In this document: positions 1,533 to 6,466 of the stretch, one piece after another
Layout: each line of letters starts with the position of its first letter
Position numbering within the stretch: position 1 is the first letter of the stretch
Source: a virus
Lineage: Duplodnaviria > Heunggongvirae > Uroviricota > Caudoviricetes
IMG/VR virus record: IMGVR_UViG_2606217106_000014
Location: 1-6,466 of that record
DNA length: 6,466 bases
Reading direction: 5' to 3' (one strand)
The notes under the pieces: model-generated
What the model was told of the DNA's origin: nothing
Database searches by the model: none
Seen by the model: the letters and a program-made list of their open reading frames with translations, nothing else
Program-made: the position numbers and the translations under genes

Positions 1533-1907
1533 ATGCGTATAGAGTTTGTTTTGCCTTACCCGCCGACGGTGAACACCTACTGGCGTCGTCGTGGCAGCAC
1601 ATATTTTGTATCAAAAGCCGGTGAGCGTTATCGCCGGGATGTGGCACTTATTGTCCGCCAGCAGCGGCTGAAATTAAACCTGTCCGGAAGGCTGGCAATA
1701 AAAATTACTGCAGAGCCACCGGATAAGCGCCGTCGTGACCTGGACAATATTCTGAAAGCACCACTGGATGCACTGACGCATGCGGGGCTTCTCATAGACG
1801 ACGAGCAGTTTGATGAAATCAATATTGTGCGCGGTCAGGTCGTTCCCGGTGGGCGGTTGGGCGTGAAAATTTACGAAATAATGCATGACGGGCAGGTCAA
1901 AAAATGA
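1533..1907 (+). CDS. rusA: RusA-family Holliday junction resolvase (crossover junction endodeoxyribonuclease)
   Basis: 124-aa ORF with RBS AAGAGG (1521-1526). PPDKRRRDLDNILKAPLDALTHAGLLIDDEQ matches the RusA catalytic core of E. coli RusA ([30 protein letters not shown]), as recalled. Confidence 0.9.
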   Translation: MRIEFVLPYPPTVNTYWRRRGSTYFVSKAGERYRRDVALIVRQQRLKLNLSGRLAIKITAEPPDKRRRDLDNILKAPLDALTHAGLLIDDEQFDEINIVRGQVVPGGRLGVKIYEIMHDGQVKK

Positions 1908-2725
1908 AGCTGGAAGATTTACCGAAATACTATTCCCCGAAATCGCCTGGCCTGACCGATGCGTCCGCCTCGACATCAAAAGATGCGCTGAGTATCACTG
2001 ATGTGATGGCCGCGCAGGGCATGACACAAAATCGGGCTGAGATGGGTTTTTCTGCGTTCCTTAGGAAAATGGGCATTAGTATGAATGACAGAGAGCGGGC
2101 AACAGAATTGCTGACAGAATATGCACTCAGTCGGTGTGATCGCGTGGCGGCGTTAAGAAAACTCCCGGCAGAAATAAAACCGGTAGTGATGCGCATTATG
2201 GCTTCGTACGCTTTTGAGGATTATGCCCGCAGCGCAGCGAGTAAAAAGCAGTGCCCTTGTTGCTATGGGGAAAAATTTATTGAAAGCGTAGTTTTTACAA
2301 ACAAGGTCCAGTATCCGGATGGTAAGCCGCCGGTATGGGCAAAGTGTACGAAAGGTGTGTATCCGTCTTACTGGGAAGAATGGAAAAAAGTCAGGGAGGT
2401 GGTAAAAGTTGCCTGTCCGGAGTGTGGCGGAAAGGGTGAGGTTTCCACCGCCTGTAAGGATTGCCGTGGGCGTGGTGTCGCCATTCATCGTGAAGAGTCG
2501 GTAAAACGTGGTATGCCTGTTATCAGAGACTGCCAGCGTTGTGGTGGTCGTGGCTGTGAAAGACTACCATCAACGGAGGCATTTAATGCCATATGCAAAG
2601 TGACGAGTGCTATCACGCTTGATACGTGGAAAAAATCAGTGAAACGCTTTTACGATACGTTGGTGGTTCGGTTTGACATTGAAGAGGCATGGGCGGAGCG
2701 GCAGTTAAAGAGGGTAACGCGATAG
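1904..2725 (+). CDS. Q: Lambda-family late antiterminator Q with expanded CxxC zinc-binding region
   Basis: 273 aa. N-terminus (YYSPKSPGLTDASASTSKDALSITDVMAAQGM) and C-terminus (TWKKSVKRFYDTLVV...RVTR) align by eye with lambda Q. Four CxxC motifs, three of them CxxCxGxG (CPECGGKG, CKDCRGRG, CQRCGGRG). ATG overlaps the rusA stop (ATGA at 1904-1907). Confidence 0.85.
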   Translation: MKLEDLPKYYSPKSPGLTDASASTSKDALSITDVMAAQGMTQNRAEMGFSAFLRKMGISMNDRERATELLTEYALSRCDRVAALRKLPAEIKPVVMRIMASYAFEDYARSAASKKQCPCCYGEKFIESVVFTNKVQYPDGKPPVWAKCTKGVYPSYWEEWKKVREVVKVACPECGGKGEVSTACKDCRGRGVAIHREESVKRGMPVIRDCQRCGGRGCERLPSTEAFNAICKVTSAITLDTWKKSVKRFYDTLVVRFDIEEAWAERQLKRVTR

Positions 2726-2730
2726 TGTTG

Positions 2731-2775
2731 TTGATTTTTCCCGAATCTGTGGTAAATTTGCTCTAACGATGGGCG
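2731..2775 (+). promoter_or_regulatory. pR'-like late promoter with qut (Q-utilisation) site
   Basis: TTGATT (2731-2736), 16-bp spacer, extended -10 TGgTAAATT (2750-2758), then TGCTCTAACGATGGG. This closely resembles lambda pR' (TAAATTTGACTCAACGATGGG), including the AACGAT pause-inducing element (2765-2770). Sits directly downstream of Q. Confidence 0.7.
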
Positions 2776-2806
2776 TTTTATGCCTGACGTTATAAGATTT
2801 TTTACA

Positions 2807-2831
2807 CCCCGCCGCCTGGCGGGTTTTTTTA
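2807..2831 (+). terminator. tR'-like intrinsic terminator
   Basis: Stem CCCGCC (2808-2813) / GGCGGG (2818-2823), loop GCCT, then T7 (2824-2830). Predicts a short pR' transcript of about 65 nt. Confidence 0.75.
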
Positions 2832-2952
2832 TGACTGAAATCGCGTCAGTACAGTAAACGCGCTGGTGGCGGTGAATACCTGTCTTTCAGCTTGCTGGCT
2901 TTTTCGACAAGAGTTATTGGTGTGTCACGTTAACCGGAAAAGGGAAAAAGAC

Positions 2953-3150
2953 ATGCTAAAACAGCAGGATATGACAGAAACCGCCAGAGTAGTGTTTAAT
3001 GAATTAAGCGTTACCGAACCGGCGACAGTCGGGGAGATTGCACAGAATACTTACCTTTCACGCGAACGCTGCCAGTTAATACTGACCCAGCTGGTTATGG
3101 CGGGTCTGGCAGACTATCAGTTCGGTTGTTACAGACGCCTTCCGCAGTGA
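2953..3150 (+). CDS. Small hypothetical protein (65 aa), possible winged-helix DNA-binding protein
   Basis: ATG at 2953 preceded by AAAAGGGAAAAAGAC. Translation MLKQQDMTETARVVFNELSVTEPATVGEIAQNTYLSRERCQLILTQLVMAGLADYQ has an HTH-like segment (TVGEIAQNTYLSRERCQLIL). The track's upstream start at 2866 has no RBS. Function unknown. Confidence 0.45.
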   Translation: MLKQQDMTETARVVFNELSVTEPATVGEIAQNTYLSRERCQLILTQLVMAGLADYQFGCYRRLPQ

Positions 3151-3160
3151 AGGCTTTTTT
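3137..3160 (+). terminator. Intrinsic terminator overlapping the stop codon of the small ORF
   Basis: Stem GCCTTC (3137-3142) / GAAGGC (3149-3154), loop CGCAGT, then T6 (3155-3160) and ATTT. Confidence 0.65.
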
Positions 3161-3177
3161 ATTTGTGGTAAATGGGC

Positions 3178-3208
3178 GGCTGGTGGGTGTTAGGGGCACC
3201 CACCAGCC
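3178..3208. promoter_or_regulatory. Perfect 12-bp inverted repeat GGCTGGTGGGTG-N7-CACCCACCAGCC upstream of the methyltransferase
   Basis: Read directly. No T-run follows, so it is not a canonical terminator; could be an operator or RNA processing/stability element. It is preceded by TGTGGTAAAT (3164-3173), which duplicates the pR' -10 region (2748-2757). Confidence 0.4.
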
Positions 3209-3300
3209 ATCTGCTCATGCGTTGGGTTCACAAGCAAACCTCAGGCCCACTGCTTTGCGCAAAAGCAGAATGAGCCTATCAGAGACAGGCTTAATGATCC

Positions 3301-4350
3301 ATGCTTAATACTGTAAAAATATCCAGTTGTGAGTTAATCAACGCCGACTGCCTGGAATTTATCCGGTCGTTACCCGAAAATTCTGTTGACCTGATAGTCA
3401 CGGACCCGCCGTACTTTAAAGTGAAGCCTGAGGGCTGGGATAACCAGTGGAAGGGCGACGATGATTACCTGAAGTGGCTGGACCAGTGTCTGGCGCAGTT
3501 CTGGCGGGTGCTGAAACCTGCCGGAAGTCTTTACCTGTTCTGTGGTCATCGCCTGGCATCTGATATCGAAATCATGATGCGTGAACGCTTCAGTGTGCTG
3601 AACCATATTATCTGGGCGAAGCCGTCCGGACGCTGGAACGGATGCAACAAGGAAAGCCTGCGGGCGTATTTCCCCGCCACAGAGCGCATTCTGTTCGCGG
3701 AACATTATCAGGGGCCGTATCGTCCGAAAGATGCCGGGTATGCGGCGAAGGGCAGTGCACTGAAACAGCATGTGATGGCCCCGCTGATTTCTTACTTTCG
3801 TGATGCGCGCGCGGCCCTGGGGATAACGGCAAAACAGATTGCAGATGCCACAGGAAAGAAAAACATGGTGTCGCACTGGTTCAGTGCCAGTCAGTGGCAG
3901 TTGCCGAACGAAAGCGATTATCTGAAATTACAGGCGCTGTTTGCCCGGGTGGCAGAAGAGAAACATCAGCGCGGTGAACTGGAAAAGCCCCACCACCAGC
4001 TGGTGGATACGTATACGTCACTGAACCGGCAGTATGTGGAGCTGCAGAGTGAATATAAGCATCTGCGGCGGTATTTTGGTGTGACGGCGCAGGTGCCGTA
4101 CACGGATGTGTGGACACATAAACCGGTGCAGTTCTATCCCGGGAAACATCCGTGCGAAAAACCGGCAGAAATGCTGCAGCAGATAATCAGCGCAAGCAGT
4201 CGTCCGGGTGACCTGGTTGCAGATTTTTTTATGGGCTCAGGTTCAACGGTAAAGGCGGCTATGGCGCTTGGGCGTCGTGCAATTGGTGTTGAGCTGGAGA
4301 CCGGACGTTTTGAGCAGACAGTCAGGGAAGTTCAGGATTTAATCGTTTGA
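3301..4350 (+). CDS. Orphan DNA N6-adenine methyltransferase, beta class (N6_N4_Mtase type)
   Basis: 349 aa. Motif IV DPPY near the N-terminus (LIVTDPPYF) and motif I FxGxGS near the C-terminus (DFFMGSGSTVKAAMALGRRAIGVE), i.e. the permuted IV->TRD->I order of beta-class amino-MTases. No restriction endonuclease partner in the window. Confidence 0.9.
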   Translation: MLNTVKISSCELINADCLEFIRSLPENSVDLIVTDPPYFKVKPEGWDNQWKGDDDYLKWLDQCLAQFWRVLKPAGSLYLFCGHRLASDIEIMMRERFSVLNHIIWAKPSGRWNGCNKESLRAYFPATERILFAEHYQGPYRPKDAGYAAKGSALKQHVMAPLISYFRDARAALGITAKQIADATGKKNMVSHWFSASQWQLPNESDYLKLQALFARVAEEKHQRGELEKPHHQLVDTYTSLNRQYVELQSEYKHLRRYFGVTAQVPYTDVWTHKPVQFYPGKHPCEKPAEMLQQIISASSRPGDLVADFFMGSGSTVKAAMALGRRAIGVELETGRFEQTVREVQDLIV

Positions 4351-4399
4351 AACGGATGAGATTGCAGAATTAATTACGCACCATTATTATTCTGCTCCC

Positions 4400-4475
4400 G
4401 GCCCTTTAGCTCAGTGGTGAGAGCGAGCGACTCATAATCGCCAGGTCGCTGGTTCAAATCCAGCAAGGGCCACCA
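4400..4475 (+). tRNA. tRNA-Ile2 (anticodon CAU, ileX/ileZ-like; automated tools may call it Met)
   Basis: 76-nt cloverleaf: acceptor GGCCCTT/AAGGGCC, D-arm GCTC...GAGC, anticodon loop CTCATAA, T-arm GCTGG-TTCAAAT-CCAGC, discriminator A, encoded CCA. Near-identical in layout to E. coli ileX as recalled. Confidence 0.85.
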
Positions 4476-4482
4476 TCACATA

Positions 4483-4559
4483 CCGCCATTAGCTCATCAG
4501 GAAAGAGCGCCAGCCTTCGAAGCTGGTTGCGCGGAGTTCGGGTCCCCGAAGGCGGTCCA
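4483..4559 (+). tRNA. tRNA-Arg-like, apparent anticodon UCG, with non-canonical features
   Basis: D-arm GCTC...GAGC, anticodon stem CCAGC/GCTGG with loop CTTCGAA, T-loop TTCGGGT, 3' CCA. Acceptor CCGCCAT/AAGGCGG has one mismatch and starts with C; the T-stem has one mismatch. Boundaries +/- 2 nt. Confidence 0.6.
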
Positions 4560-4572
4560 TTATCTGTATCCT

Positions 4573-4649
4573 GCGTTGTTAGCTCAGCCGGACAGAGCAA
4601 TTGCCTTCTAAGCAATCGGTCACTGGTTCGAATACAGTAGAACGCGCCA
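4573..4649 (+). tRNA. tRNA-Arg (anticodon UCU)
   Basis: Acceptor GCGTTGT/AGAACGC (one mismatch), D-arm GCTC...GAGC, anticodon stem ATTGC/GCAAT with loop CTTCTAA, T-loop TTCGAAT, discriminator G, encoded CCA. Confidence 0.8.
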
Positions 4650-4664
4650 CACTTATTTTCCCTG

Positions 4665-4688
4665 GCTCGCTTTTGCGGGCTTTTTTTT
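4665..4688 (+). terminator. Intrinsic terminator downstream of the tRNA cluster
   Basis: Stem GCTCGC (4665-4670) / GCGGGC (4675-4680) with one G-U pair, loop TTTT, then T8 (4681-4688). Confidence 0.6.
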
Positions 4689-4900
4689 AAATGTCTCATA
4701 ATTCAGGCGGTTGACTGTTGTCTGGTTTGCGGGGAGTTTGTTAAAAGAAACTGGCATGGTGAATCCCCCTGTGCGGAGGGGCAATCAGCAACTGGTGTTT
4801 TGTCACCGACCCTTATCCTTTCTGTGCGGGTTCAGGTGCTGATACTGAACTCACCGGGAGGCACCCGGCACCATGCAATGGCACATAGCGCCACTCTCCA

Positions 4901-4925
4901 GCCCCTCTCCGGAGGGGCTTTCTTA
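4901..4925 (+). terminator. GC-rich hairpin with weak U-tract (terminator-like or RNA structural element)
   Basis: Perfect 8-bp stem AGCCCCTC (4901-4908) / GAGGGGCT (4913-4920), tetraloop TCCG, then TTCTT. Confidence 0.35.
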
Positions 4926-4930
4926 TGGAC

Positions 4931-4958
4931 AAAAAAATCCCGCGCTGGGAGACGCGGG
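4931..4958 (-). terminator. Minus-strand intrinsic terminator
   Basis: On the minus strand: stem CCCGCG (4958-4953) / CGCGGG (4944-4939), 8-nt loop, then A and T7 (4937-4931). Confidence 0.45.
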
Positions 4959-5152
4959 CGGCAAGGAATAAACAACAAAACGTGAAGTAATATTTCAGTT
5001 GGCGAATAATATCCGACAGTAATCACTCTGCGCAATAGCGCGGCCTTTTTCGTATTGCGGGCTGTTGTCTATCTTCTGCCATTGTCCTGTAACTTCCGGA
5101 CTTCAGCCCGCTCCTCATTTTACTCACAATATTATCCAGGCCGGGAGGATTC

Positions 5153-6466
5153 ATGGCATTTAAACACTATGACGTGGTCAGGGCGGCGTCGCCGTCAGAC
5201 CTTGCGGAGCGACTGACACAAAAACTGAAGGAAGGCTGGCAGCCGTTTGGCAGTCCTGTGGCTATCACGCCTTATACACTGATGCAGGCCATTGCCGCAG
5301 AGGGTGATGTGACCACGCCTGTGGTTGTGCCCGACACAGGGGCTGGTGGCTCTCCGGGAGTGGCTACCACTGAACCGGAGTATTACTACGTTATTCCCCA
5401 GGCCGGGCAGTCGAACGGTATGGCCTATGGTGAGGGGCTTCCTCTGCCGGAGACCTATGATCGCCCTGACTCCCGTATTAAGCAGCTGGCCCGTCGCAGC
5501 ACTGTGACGCCGGGTGGTGATACCTGTGCATACAATGACGTTATTCCGGCAGACCACTGTCTGCATGATGTTCAGGACATGAGCGCACTTAACCATCCTC
5601 ATGCAGACCTGAGTAAGGGCCAGTACGGGACTGTCGGTCAGGGGCTGCATATTGCCAAAAAACTGCTGCCTTATATCCCGCAGAATGCCGGGATTCTTCT
5701 GGTGCCCTGTTGCCGTGGCGGGTCTGGTTTAACCGTGGGTAATGACGGCACGTTCAGCGAAACGTCTGGCGCATCGGCAAATTCAGCCCGCTGGGGAGTG
5801 GGTAAACCGCTGTATCAGGATTTTCTCTTCCGTACAAAAGCGGCGCTGTCGAAGAACCCGAAAAACAGGCTTCTGGCCGTGGTATGGATGCAGGGGGAAA
5901 ATGATCTTGCGGACGGCAGTCAGCAGCACAGCGGCCTGTTTACCACTATGGTGCAGCAGTTCAGGGCTGATATGGCTGCATATTCTGCACAGTGTGTTGG
6001 CGGAAGTGCTGGCTCGGTGCCGTGGATTTGTGGTGACACCACGTATTACTGGAAGAATCTTAACGCCGATAAATATGAGGCGGTATATGGCGGTTACAAG
6101 GGCAGGGAAGCACAGAATATTTTCTTTGTTCCTTTTATGACGGATGAGAATGGACAGAGCACGCCAACGAATGCTCCGGCGGAAGACCCGGATATTGTGG
6201 CTGTCGGGTATTACGGTGCAGCATCCCGAACCCAGGGCAGTTTTGTTTCGACACAGCGTGACAGCCATTTCAGCTCATGGGCACGCAGGGGCGTCATTTC
6301 AGACCGTCTGGCCTCAGCTATTATGCTCCATGCAGGGCGCACGGCTGAATTGATGCGCGGGCAGACCGTGACACCACCGGATGAGAAGCCGTCACCTGAT
6401 ACACCATCAAAACCGTCCACGCCACCCGCAGACACCACGACGATGAGTACGCTATTTGCTTACCGG
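5153..6466 (+). CDS. nanS-p: NanS-p-type prophage sialate O-acetylesterase (DUF1737 N-domain + SASA/SGNH esterase domain), 5' partial - runs off window end
   Basis: Not in the ORF track because there is no stop in the window; 438 codons open from ATG 5153 (RBS GGGAGGA) to 6466. Translation MAFKHYDVVRAASPSDLAERLTQKLKEGWQPFGSPVAITPYTLMQAIAAEG... then YYYVIPQAGQSNGMAYGEG (GQSN catalytic-serine block), and a Pro/Thr-rich linker TPPDEKPSPDTPSKPSTPPADTTT near the window end. Confidence 0.85.
   Translation, partial: MAFKHYDVVRAASPSDLAERLTQKLKEGWQPFGSPVAITPYTLMQAIAAEGDVTTPVVVPDTGAGGSPGVATTEPEYYYVIPQAGQSNGMAYGEGLPLPETYDRPDSRIKQLARRSTVTPGGDTCAYNDVIPADHCLHDVQDMSALNHPHADLSKGQYGTVGQGLHIAKKLLPYIPQNAGILLVPCCRGGSGLTVGNDGTFSETSGASANSARWGVGKPLYQDFLFRTKAALSKNPKNRLLAVVWMQGENDLADGSQQHSGLFTTMVQQFRADMAAYSAQCVGGSAGSVPWICGDTTYYWKNLNADKYEAVYGGYKGREAQNIFFVPFMTDENGQSTPTNAPAEDPDIVAVGYYGAASRTQGSFVSTQRDSHFSSWARRGVISDRLASAIMLHAGRTAELMRGQTVTPPDEKPSPDTPSKPSTPPADTTTMSTLFAYR

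Follow-up and report, generated by a model that had tools for sequence, protein, structure and literature searches.

An M.EcoGII-type adenine methyltransferase gene in the late operon of an Escherichia coli prophage and the conserved structured leader RNA that precedes it

Introduction

Why should a prophage carry among its late genes a DNA methyltransferase (MTase) that has no restriction endonuclease at its side, and how would such an enzyme be kept under control? The window, that is, the whole stretch of 6,466 nucleotides analysed here (viral record IMGVR_UViG_2606217106_000014, Caudoviricetes), contains open reading frames (ORFs) for DUF968, RusA, Q, a 65-aa wHTH protein, the MTase and a NanS-p esterase, and its prophage context is clear from DUF968, RusA, Q, the tRNAs and NanS-p (Table 1). 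An earlier note on this DNA had suggested two roles for the enzyme, self-protection of progeny phage DNA or an epigenetic function.

Non-specific adenine methylation, the orphan status of such enzymes on prophages and the idea of progeny self-protection are all published already, the last having been proposed for M.EcoGII (Murray et al. 2018, PMC5778455), and the gene itself is ordinary, as this published enzyme family has thousands of nearly identical copies. Two points go slightly beyond the literature: the promoter-proximal late-operon position of the family, behind at least five types of Q in many genera, and the presence of its own conserved structured leader RNA, often with a small winged-helix partner. 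M.EcoGII is a common tool for chromatin footprinting and RNA labelling, and its toxicity makes expression hard, so that a native control element could be of practical and biological interest. The full explanation favoured here, in which a toxic orthologue of M.EcoGII is expressed late, under double control, as an anti-restriction function, is considered highly probable.

Table 1. Features of the late region; positions are those of the window
Feature	Position	Strand	Basis
Q, late-gene antiterminator, 273 aa, PF03589 (Antiterm)	1904..2725	+	E=1.6e-50; 'antitermination protein' in relatives
pR'-like late promoter	2731..2770	+	aligns with lambda pR' (TTGACT..GGTAAATTTGACTCAACGATGG)
tR'-like intrinsic terminator, CCCGCCGCCTGGCGGG + T7	2808..2830	+	terminator scan
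65-aa winged-helix-like protein, phrog_331 (function unknown)	2953..3150	+	weak TrmB/MarR matches
Second intrinsic terminator, GCCTTCCGCAGTGAAGGC + T6	3137..3160	+	overlaps stop codon of the 65-aa gene
Conserved structured 5' leader RNA, ~135 nt	3169..3303	+	covariance model, covariation, folding z-score
Leader helix P1	3173-3177/3245-3249	+	covariation; RNAalifold
Leader helix P2	3178-3189/3197-3208	+	covariation; RNAalifold
Leader helix P3	3210-3218/3230-3238	+	covariation
Leader helix P4	3250-3256/3262-3268	+	covariation; RNAalifold
Leader helix P5	3273-3277/3287-3291	+	covariation
Predicted M.EcoGII-type beta-class N6-adenine methyltransferase, 349 aa, intact	3301..4350	+	PF01555, motifs, M.EcoGII alignment
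Three phage tRNA genes: CAT, Arg-TCG, Arg-TCT	4400..4649	+	ARAGORN
Intrinsic terminator, GGCTCGCTTTTGCGGGCT + T8	4664..4690	+	3' of tRNA cluster

A beta-class methyltransferase without a restriction partner

The MTase ORF is intact, begins with ATG and is a real gene by ORF analysis. Its product matches the Pfam family N6_N4_Mtase over residues 29-340 (E=1.8e-44, 152.8 bits against a cutoff of 26.7) and harbors the catalytic motif IV (DPPY) at residues 35-38 and motif I (FMGSGS) at 310-315. This is the beta-class order, with motif IV N-terminal, a central target recognition domain (TRD) and the SAM-binding motif I (FxGxG) C-terminal; the earlier note had named the same class. The nearest solved structures, M.RsrI, CcrM, M.MboIIA and M.PvuII, are all beta-class enzymes, and the structural matches are split over their N- and C-terminal parts. 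The automatic database name of the protein is 'site-specific DNA-methyltransferase'.

The ORF list and the profile search revealed no endonuclease-like ORF in the window, and the annotated genes next to the MTase of the ECO2947 prophage and of phages 1720a-02, N15, mEp460 and the Morganella phage include none either. The MTase is thus an orphan, or solitary, enzyme, and the absence of a cognate endonuclease, claimed beforehand, extends to the annotated neighbours of its relatives.

Relation to M.EcoGII and the question of specificity

The likeness to M.EcoGII, suggested in the earlier note, has now been measured. The window protein (from E. coli 2-460-02_S3_C1) is identical to M.EcoGII, which comes from a prophage of E. 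coli O104:H4 C227-11 (PMC5778455), at 334 of 349 positions (95.7%), with 342 positives and no gaps over the full length. M.EcoGII is likewise a prophage-borne orphan of 349 aa with the same DPPY and FxGxG motifs, and by sequence comparison the window ORF is its orthologue. The reference sequence was taken from Table S1 of PMC11551740 (SUPREM supplement) after correction of three machine-reading errors (NHHIWAK, RRRAIG, TKVPQ), and as corrected it is exactly the protein of O104:H4 genomes (AFS73976.1, AKE83937.1, A0A0E0Y1D5_ECO1C). Only one of six corrected versions submitted to exact look-up, that with 'TYKPVQYYPGK', corresponds to a real protein, which O104:H4 genomes encode; the uncorrected supplement, which gives 331/350 with 2 gaps against the window protein, was set aside since it contains the reading errors.

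All 15 differences fall within residues 148-278 (window residue first: A148E, S152R, S164A, S191P, A212S, D236S, T239S, S240E, Q244K, V246M, Q249L, H254N, A263V, H273Y, F278Y), while residues 1-147 and 279-349 are identical. The catalytic core is therefore the same, as are the stretches 97-110 and 116-140 that form the conserved dimer interface of M.EcoGII (PMC11551740). The part that differs, the region of the linker and the TRD, could affect specificity. The charged linker has been tied to non-specific binding, and it and the four-helix TRD together span about residues 135-260, the predicted TRD being 160-237 (PMC11551740).

These substitutions could have given the enzyme a defined site, and with it protection limited to one restriction system or a few. 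All of them lie in the segment that includes the predicted TRD, the database label, though automatic, is that of a site-specific enzyme, and M.PflMI (site CCANNNNNTGG), the nearest relative of the family among characterised site-specific enzymes, has a similar predicted two-domain fold. M.PflMI, however, is only ~27% identical to M.EcoGII, does not have the charged interdomain linker and belongs to a restriction-modification pair, whereas the linker of the window protein is free of insertions and deletions and most of the substitutions are conservative. Reconstructed ancestors of the M.EcoGII family, far more diverged than the window allele, are still non-specific. Because of this, and of the 95.7% identity, the window allele is predicted to methylate adenine non-specifically, and a site-specific orphan is highly improbable. 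Its divergence from M.EcoGII is about equal to that of M.EcoGI, a second prophage-borne copy in the same O104:H4 strain, reported as 333/349 identical; no biochemical characterisation of M.EcoGI is reported in the literature consulted on the family.

Position behind Q and a putative late promoter

The MTase lies downstream of Q and on the same strand, with a predicted promoter and an intrinsic terminator between them. The pR'-like promoter comprises a -35 element (TTGATT, 2731-2736), an extended -10 element (TGgTAAATT, 2750-2758) and, close to the start, AACGAT (2765-2770), which matches the pause-inducing element of lambda; by this homology it would function as pR'. A consensus sigma-70 scan of positions 2600-5000 returned no promoter, and this result was set aside as insensitive because the alignment to lambda shows pR'. 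The strong tR'-like terminator would stop the pR' transcript at ~65 nt unless the RNA polymerase is Q-modified, so that expression of the MTase is predicted to depend on Q. The sequence in common with phage 1720a-02, the best phage match (95.5% at the nucleotide level), which has a different type of Q, starts at this terminator. The start of Q overlaps the end of rusA.

The earlier note had placed the MTase between tR' and the tRNAs. The tRNA genes do follow it, and tR' is not directly adjacent, as the conserved 65-aa gene, the second terminator and the structured leader lie in between. Beyond the tRNAs come an STnc100 sRNA and the NanS-p esterase gene, and in a relative with identical gene order holin and lysozyme genes lie 3' of this module. 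The tRNA with the anticodon CAT is called Met by ARAGORN and Ile in the RefSeq annotation of relatives.

Of 5426 complete E. coli genomes, 1981 (about a third) have the MTase gene together with its leader. Homologues occupy the same slot in other species: across 80 genome loci, at least 54 follow a recognisable Q and at least 39 lie ahead of genes for holin or lysozyme, and the Q proteins are of at least five sequence types. Both the orphan status and, as far as layout goes, the assignment to a Q-dependent lambdoid late operon hold for the window as well as for these loci. That the same slot recurs behind at least five types of Q in many genera supports a late, toxic and broad anti-restriction function as the selected role.

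The MTases of phage N15 (gene 52), mEp460 (mEp460_053) and Morganella phage IME1369_02, homologues with 58%, 82% and 61% identity, likewise lie between a late regulator and lysis genes, and all three are preceded by the same leader RNA (38-146 bits). Unlike the window, none of them has a tRNA cluster or a NanS-p gene after the MTase. In N15 the winged-helix homologue gp51 is encoded upstream of the predicted promoter and terminator, while in the window the corresponding gene lies downstream of them.

A conserved leader RNA upstream of the start codon

The leader directly adjoins the MTase start codon, the ATG of which is at 3301, and has five helices, of which P1, P2 and P3 meet in a three-way junction while P4 and P5 form two hairpins after it. 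The sole Shine-Dalgarno (SD)-like sequence, AGG (3287-3289), is in P5, on the 3' side of the helix, and UGAUC (3295-3299) is conserved just before the ATG. A covariance model scores 127 bits in the window and gave 69 matches on the + strand (E<=3.3e-6), of which 68 were used for an alignment. Covariation is strong: 33 of the 38 pairs show changes on both sides that preserve pairing, 88% of cells are paired as against 32-43% when the partners are slid, and the covariation score is 0.252 as against 0.04-0.09 slid and 0.107 shuffled, with none of 500 shuffles reaching 0.252. RNAalifold alone gives P1, P2 and P4, and the folding z-score is -3.84.

The model matches are found only upstream of the M.EcoGII-type MTase family, and they end at or within ~25 nt of the MTase start or, in Vibrio, of the start of a Com-like ORF. 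In IMG/VR the MTase starts 130-134 nt after the leader's AATGGGCG in 114 of 118 usable pattern matches; the other four, which have no MTase downstream, are not leaders by the model test.

It could be argued that this stretch acts as DNA, being an operator, a promoter or a Dam- or SeqA-sensitive site. P2 and P4 are near-palindromes that might serve as inverted repeats for a binding protein, GATC is conserved at 3296-3299, and a small winged-helix protein is encoded next to it. An operator, however, would not need P1, which joins segments about 70 nt apart at the three-way junction, and it would not account for the covariation described above. G-U pairs are frequent on the + strand, where the model reaches 127-160 bits, compared with at most 21 bits on the - strand. 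At least 17 loci have the element but no winged-helix gene. A DNA-level element is therefore very unlikely, and the leader can be regarded with confidence as a real, conserved RNA structure. An ORF that spans it (3126-3308, 60 aa, TTG start) was rejected as coding because single-base indels in homologues break the frame and the substitutions are compensatory in the helices. An alternative or pseudoknot pairing, P5' (AUCA 3278-3281 with UGAU 3295-3298), is conserved in sequence without compensatory changes, and several groups break it.

The leader is apparently new. When the whole window was scanned permissively (E<=1), no Rfam 15 family was returned for it, and no description was found in the searchable literature; the single P26 match, on the minus strand at 3177-3241, was discarded (24 bits, below the gathering score of 36, and on the wrong strand). 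Its novelty and its role in translation are the less certain parts of this reading. The leader probably gates translation of the toxic MTase. The broader proposal, that it represents an undescribed cis-regulatory RNA family, dedicated to M.EcoGII-type genes from Escherichia to Vibrio, which gates translation by sequestering the ribosome-binding region in P5, is given an even chance of being right. Possible triggers are a protein made late by the phage (in enterics the 65-aa winged-helix protein, in Vibrio a Com-like zinc ribbon), the RNA-binding MTase itself, or a small molecule, for instance SAM or SAH; a ligand-sensing riboswitch is the least likely version of the proposal and is improbable.

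The 65-aa gene lies directly upstream of the MTase in 42 of the 80 loci and usually ends ~140-160 nt 5' of the MTase ATG. A single-sequence AlphaFold2 prediction of its product, made without an alignment, gave three helices with a pLDDT of 53, which does not suffice for a fold search.

Proposed silence in the lysogen and protection of progeny DNA

In vitro, M.EcoGII can methylate as much as 99% of dA, which blocks many restriction enzymes; lysogens do not express the enzyme, and its expression slows growth or is toxic (PMC5778455). [quoted passage not shown] The model proposed here is that pR' fires in the lysogen and its transcripts would end at tR' or, failing that, at the second terminator, which would keep the toxic enzyme silent. 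After induction, Q-modified RNA polymerase would resist termination, and MTase mRNA would then be produced together with the tRNAs and with the transcripts for lysis and morphogenesis. The leader would add a second, probably translational, layer of control, since P5, its last helix, buries the only SD-like sequence. The enzyme would methylate replicating or concatemeric phage DNA before packaging, and the progeny genomes would therefore enter the next host guarded against adenine-sensitive Type I, II and III restriction.

The epigenetic role is the less likely half of the earlier interpretation, since M.EcoGII, the published orthologue, is not expressed in lysogens and the MTase has two terminators and a structured leader in front of it, an arrangement consistent with silence. 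To act as a regulator of host or prophage genes in the lysogen, the MTase would have to be transcribed from a promoter of its own 5' of the leader instead of pR'. An extended -10-like sequence, TGTGGTAAAT at 3164-3173, lies just there and could be a weak independent promoter; it, or the variant TGTGAAAAT, is conserved in enterobacterial copies, and the annotation of N15 marks a -35/-10 pair in the interval from gp51 to gene 52, at ~70 nt 5' of the leader. The conserved GATC just 5' of the ATG would also suit a regulatory function, and the orphan MTases Dam and CcrM do act as regulators. The -10-like motif is, however, not conserved in Vibrio, there is no conserved -35, and non-specific methylation offers no site-selective signal, all of which makes an epigenetic regulator very improbable indeed.

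It has also to be considered whether the relevant substrate is RNA or single-stranded DNA (for instance, late transcripts or intermediates of replication and packaging) and not duplex phage DNA. M.EcoGII acts on ssDNA almost as on dsDNA, and it also modifies RNA and both strands of RNA:DNA hybrids. Its activity on RNA is nevertheless roughly 100-fold below that on DNA (published supplementary kinetics) and is deemed promiscuous in PMC11551740, m6A has no known function in bacterial mRNA, and the position of the MTase fits that of other phage anti-restriction modifiers; such a substrate is accordingly the most remote of the alternatives.

The benefit of duplex DNA methylation against restriction is a putative one; no published test was found in the literature of whether phage without the MTase plate worse on restricting hosts. 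Plasmids heavily methylated by M.EcoGII transform even non-restricting E. coli 10^4-10^5-fold worse (PMC5778455), so full methylation could be harmful, and the benefit may require that methylation stays partial.

Parallels with com-mom and alpha-class enzymes

Late expression, toxicity and control through Com are common to the mom gene of phage Mu and three non-specific MTases of the alpha class, Hia5, Hin1523 and Nme1821 (PMC3299994). Like the role proposed for the MTase, Mu com-mom provides a late, host-toxic, broad-spectrum adenine modification that guards phage DNA from many restriction enzymes, and it is controlled at both transcription and translation by way of a structured mRNA leader at the start codon. 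Mom, however, has an acyltransferase fold and makes acetamido-adenine, whereas the window enzyme is a methyltransferase; the window, unlike Mu, has no Com, and the two leader sequences are unrelated. Hia5, Hin1523 and Nme1821 (Drozdz et al. 2012, PMC3299994) resemble M.EcoGII in being non-specific N6-adenine MTases of prophages, silent in the laboratory and presumed to be late anti-restriction functions. They differ in their alpha-class order (FxGxG before DPPY), their Mu-like transposable prophages, their mom position and the com gene upstream. The MTase system may therefore work like com-mom, yet it is not a member of it.

Neither the window nor the enterobacterial loci have a Cys4, Com-like ORF upstream of the MTase. 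Among 21 sampled loci without the leader or with a divergent one, such ORFs occur only in three Vibrio loci, all of which have a leader. The matches of these zinc-ribbon ORFs are weak (PF10122, E=0.0016, below the cutoff; phrog_6417, 'translational regulator', E=3.3e-5), and the ORFs are placed between the leader and the MTase.

Identity and published biology of the methyltransferase

The ORF that the earlier note had read as a beta-class adenine methyltransferase (MTase) is intact, and the class is borne out by a Pfam N6_N4_Mtase match (E=1.8e-44) and by the motif order, DPPY (residues 35-38) preceding FMGSGS (310-315). The closest solved structures are beta-class enzymes, their alignment to the MTase being limited to the two halves of the catalytic core. 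The protein is an exact database entry, KDY44023.1/WP_032188722.1, from E. coli 2-460-02_S3_C1. It is also an orphan, as had been proposed, with no endonuclease found in the window or in the annotated neighbourhoods of relatives.

The suggested likeness to M.EcoGII amounts to near-identity, 334 of 349 residues being the same without gaps. The M.EcoGII reference was the Table S1 sequence of Ochiai et al. 2024 with three reading errors corrected, after which exact look-up matches it to the real O104:H4 protein (AFS73976.1, AKE83937.1, A0A0E0Y1D5_ECO1C). All 15 differences fall within residues 148-278, which hold the interdomain linker and the target-recognition region, and residues 1-147 and 279-349 are unchanged, including the conserved dimer-interface stretches of the family (as given in PMC11551740). 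Non-specificity is kept in reconstructed ancestors far more diverged than the window allele, and M.PflMI, the nearest site-specific relative, has only ~27% identity and no charged linker (PMC11551740). Given this near-identity, the location of the differences, the non-specific ancestors and the distance to M.PflMI, the sequence makes non-specific adenine methylation by the window allele very likely.

M.EcoGII, a 349-aa beta-class enzyme of an O104:H4 prophage, shares 333/349 residues with a second copy, M.EcoGI, and belongs to "a very large family" carried by E. coli prophages; phage 1720a-02 has a close relative (PMC5778455). [quoted passage not shown] Self-protection of phage DNA, one of the two readings proposed earlier, is supported by the sequence and is already the published interpretation, according to which the gene is probably turned on at induction, against host restriction (PMC5778455). 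The main caveat to an anti-restriction benefit is that, even in non-restricting E. coli, the transformation efficiency of plasmids with 80% m6dA drops 10^4-10^5-fold (PMC5778455), so that the methylation level in vivo must matter. The searchable literature yielded no phage-genetics test of this benefit.

Predicted late transcription and gene order

The window covers the junction of the nin, Q and late regions in a lambdoid prophage, and all its genes run left to right. Holin, lysozyme and Rz genes come next in the best complete-genome relatives (92% identity). The sequence right after the gene of the late antiterminator Q can be aligned with the lambda late promoter pR', of which the -10 and the AACGAT element are near-exact copies, whereas Q belongs to another Pfam family (PF03589). 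In lambda, AACGAT induces the sigma-dependent pause that is the site of Q loading. With a strong terminator (tR') so close, the predicted transcript that escapes Q modification is ~65 nt long. The lambdoid late logic has been established in Stx phages: pR' is constitutive, transcription stops at tR', and Q brings about read-through (PMC7547250). Applied to the MTase, constitutive transcription from pR' would stop at tR', and read-through allowed by Q would reach the gene. The location between tR' and the tRNAs stated in the earlier note is right but incomplete, since the gene of a 65-aa protein, a second terminator and a leader RNA also precede the MTase.

The best phage match is 1720a-02 (95.5% nt), which has a different Q type, and the sequence that it shares with the window starts at the tR' hairpin. 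This points to swapping of the downstream cassette between late promoters of different specificity, and tR' looks like a recombination boundary between the Q/pR' modules and the MTase cassette.

Features of the window (and, in the last three rows, approximate positions in Vibrio loci)
Feature	Position	Strand	Remark
DUF968/NinG-like gene	474-1520	+
rusA	1533-1907	+
Q antiterminator	1904-2725	+	PF03589 type
pR' -35	2731-2736	+	TTGATT
pR' extended -10	2750-2758	+	TGgTAAATT
pR' start-proximal element	2765-2770	+	AACGAT
tR'	2808-2830	+	strong intrinsic terminator
65-aa gene	2953-3150	+
Second terminator	3137-3160	+	after 65-aa gene
Leader RNA	3169-3303	+	~135 nt
P1	3173-3177 / 3245-3249	+
P2	3178-3189 / 3197-3208	+
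P3	3210-3218 / 3230-3238	+
P4	3250-3256 / 3262-3268	+
P5	3273-3277 / 3287-3291	+
GATC	3296-3299		Dam site
Methyltransferase	3301-4350	+
tRNAs (n=3)	4400-4649	+
CAT-anticodon tRNA	4400-4475	+
Third terminator	4664-4690	+	after tRNAs
STnc100 sRNA	4725-4930	+	143 bits
Terminator-like hairpin	4900-4919	+
Terminator-like hairpin	4958-4939	-
NanS-p type esterase	5153-6466, on past window end	+	DUF1737+SASA
Com-like ORF, L074	~4840-4965
Com-like ORF, L075	~4830-4935
Com-like ORF, L077	~4825-4955

Distribution of the methyltransferase

Searching a single genome per species gave 80 loci with MTase homologues (54-99% identity) in Escherichia, Salmonella, Klebsiella, Enterobacter, Serratia, Proteus, Providencia, Morganella, Vibrio, Psychromonas and other hosts. 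The late-operon placement claimed earlier extends to them: just a few reference proteins revealed a recognisable Q of one of five sequence types upstream on the same strand in 54 loci, and a holin or lysozyme downstream in 39. Homologues hold the same position in phage N15 (gene 52), mEp460 (mEp460_053) and a Morganella phage. Of 5426 complete E. coli genomes, 1981 carry the MTase together with its leader, in up to six copies per genome, and the 90%-identity cluster of the MTase counts 5932 members. The gene is a common one, and the late-operon position is a family trait. The window MTase, nearly identical to a published and very common enzyme and found in the slot usual for it, is already known; the leader RNA, and the proteins that sometimes accompany it, deserve closer attention.

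A conserved leader RNA

From Escherichia to Proteus and Plesiomonas, the spacer between the 65-aa gene and the MTase is conserved above both proteins, and the raw sequences show compensatory changes on plain inspection. It comprises a three-way junction (P1-P2-P3) followed by hairpins P4 and P5, and abuts the start codon. A covariance model of this five-helix structure, written on a clean sub-alignment, found 69 plus-strand matches (34-160 bits, E<=3.3e-6), the window leader scoring 127 bits (folding z=-3.84) and minus-strand scores reaching at most 21 bits. Each match ends at the MTase start or within ~25 nt of it, except at three Vibrio loci, where it ends likewise near a 41-44-aa Cys4 ORF ahead of the MTase. 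In an alignment of 68 of these matches, which is biased toward the model because it was fitted to it, standard pairs fill 88.1% of cells (32-43% with partners slid), both sides change at 33 of 38 pairs, and the covariation score is 0.252, which none of 500 shuffles reached, versus 0.04-0.09 slid and 0.107 shuffled. RNAalifold alone recovers P1, P2 and P4, with double changes at 18/22 pairs; support is weaker for P3 (75% paired) and P5 (80%).

Exact-pattern matching in IMG/VR returned 120 stretches, 118 with sufficient downstream sequence, and in 114 of the latter an MTase starts 130-134 nt past the leader's AATGGGCG; the remaining four proved not to be leaders. Across these 69 loci and 114 contigs, the leader occurs only upstream of M.EcoGII-family genes. 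It matches no family in Rfam 15, and its sequence strings do not occur in the searchable literature.

Proposed translational control and candidate protein partners

The sole SD-like AGG lies within the 3' arm of P5, 11 nt ahead of the ATG. The simplest reading is that the leader gates the translation of a toxic enzyme. Such gating would have a parallel in com-mom of phage Mu, where Com is a translational activator of mom, and in Hia5 and Hin1523, com-linked non-specific MTases (PMC3299994). In the Vibrio relatives, the ORF between leader and MTase encodes a Com-like Cys4 zinc ribbon. It fits the com-mom parallel, although it is matched weakly (PF10122 at E=0.0016, under the cutoff; phrog_6417 at E=3.3e-5), and by its sequence would connect the beta-class M.EcoGII family with control of the com-mom type, known from alpha-class non-specific MTases.

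A second candidate partner is the 65-aa protein, a member of phrog_331 (annotated as function unknown) with weak winged-helix matches (TrmB, E=0.0026; MarR; DprA_WH), which might regulate the MTase or assist it as an accessory factor. Its AlphaFold model, made without an alignment, is too poor to use (pLDDT 53). The ORF is bracketed by two terminators; in mEp460 and the Morganella phage, homologues with 44-52% identity are found at the corresponding position, and N15 gp51 is a distant homologue. By profile search, the family lies directly upstream of the MTase in 42/80 loci, its end usually ~140-160 nt ahead of the ATG, and is thus a frequent, not obligatory, partner. The leader is found at at least 17 loci that lack the 65-aa gene, and also in N15.

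In nearly all enterobacterial copies, GATC (UGAUC in the RNA) stands 1-2 nt ahead of the ATG. Its conservation could reflect pairing with the 16S 3' end, an alternative helix near P5 (P5') or Dam-dependent control. In Serratia-group copies, UGAUC overlaps an in-register AUG (AUGAUC), which may be the start codon.

Other features of the late region

The ~65-nt pR'-tR' transcript is positioned like the StxS sRNA of Stx phages, and the tRNA trio matches their ileZ-argN-argO set. Its CAT-anticodon member is tRNA-Met by ARAGORN and tRNA-Ile in the RefSeq annotation of relatives; as tRNA-Ile it is presumably lysidine-modified. Terminator-like hairpins, one on each strand, flank STnc100, a full-length Rfam match (gathering score 47) that separates the tRNA cluster from the NanS-p gene and occupies the slot of the stx genes in Stx-converting phages. 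The next late gene encodes the NanS-p type sialate O-acetylesterase and has a good SD (GGAGG) ahead of it. The window is one entire assembly contig of 6466 bp, which probably ends at prophage repeats met by the assembler, given the up to six copies of the leader-MTase segment per E. coli genome.
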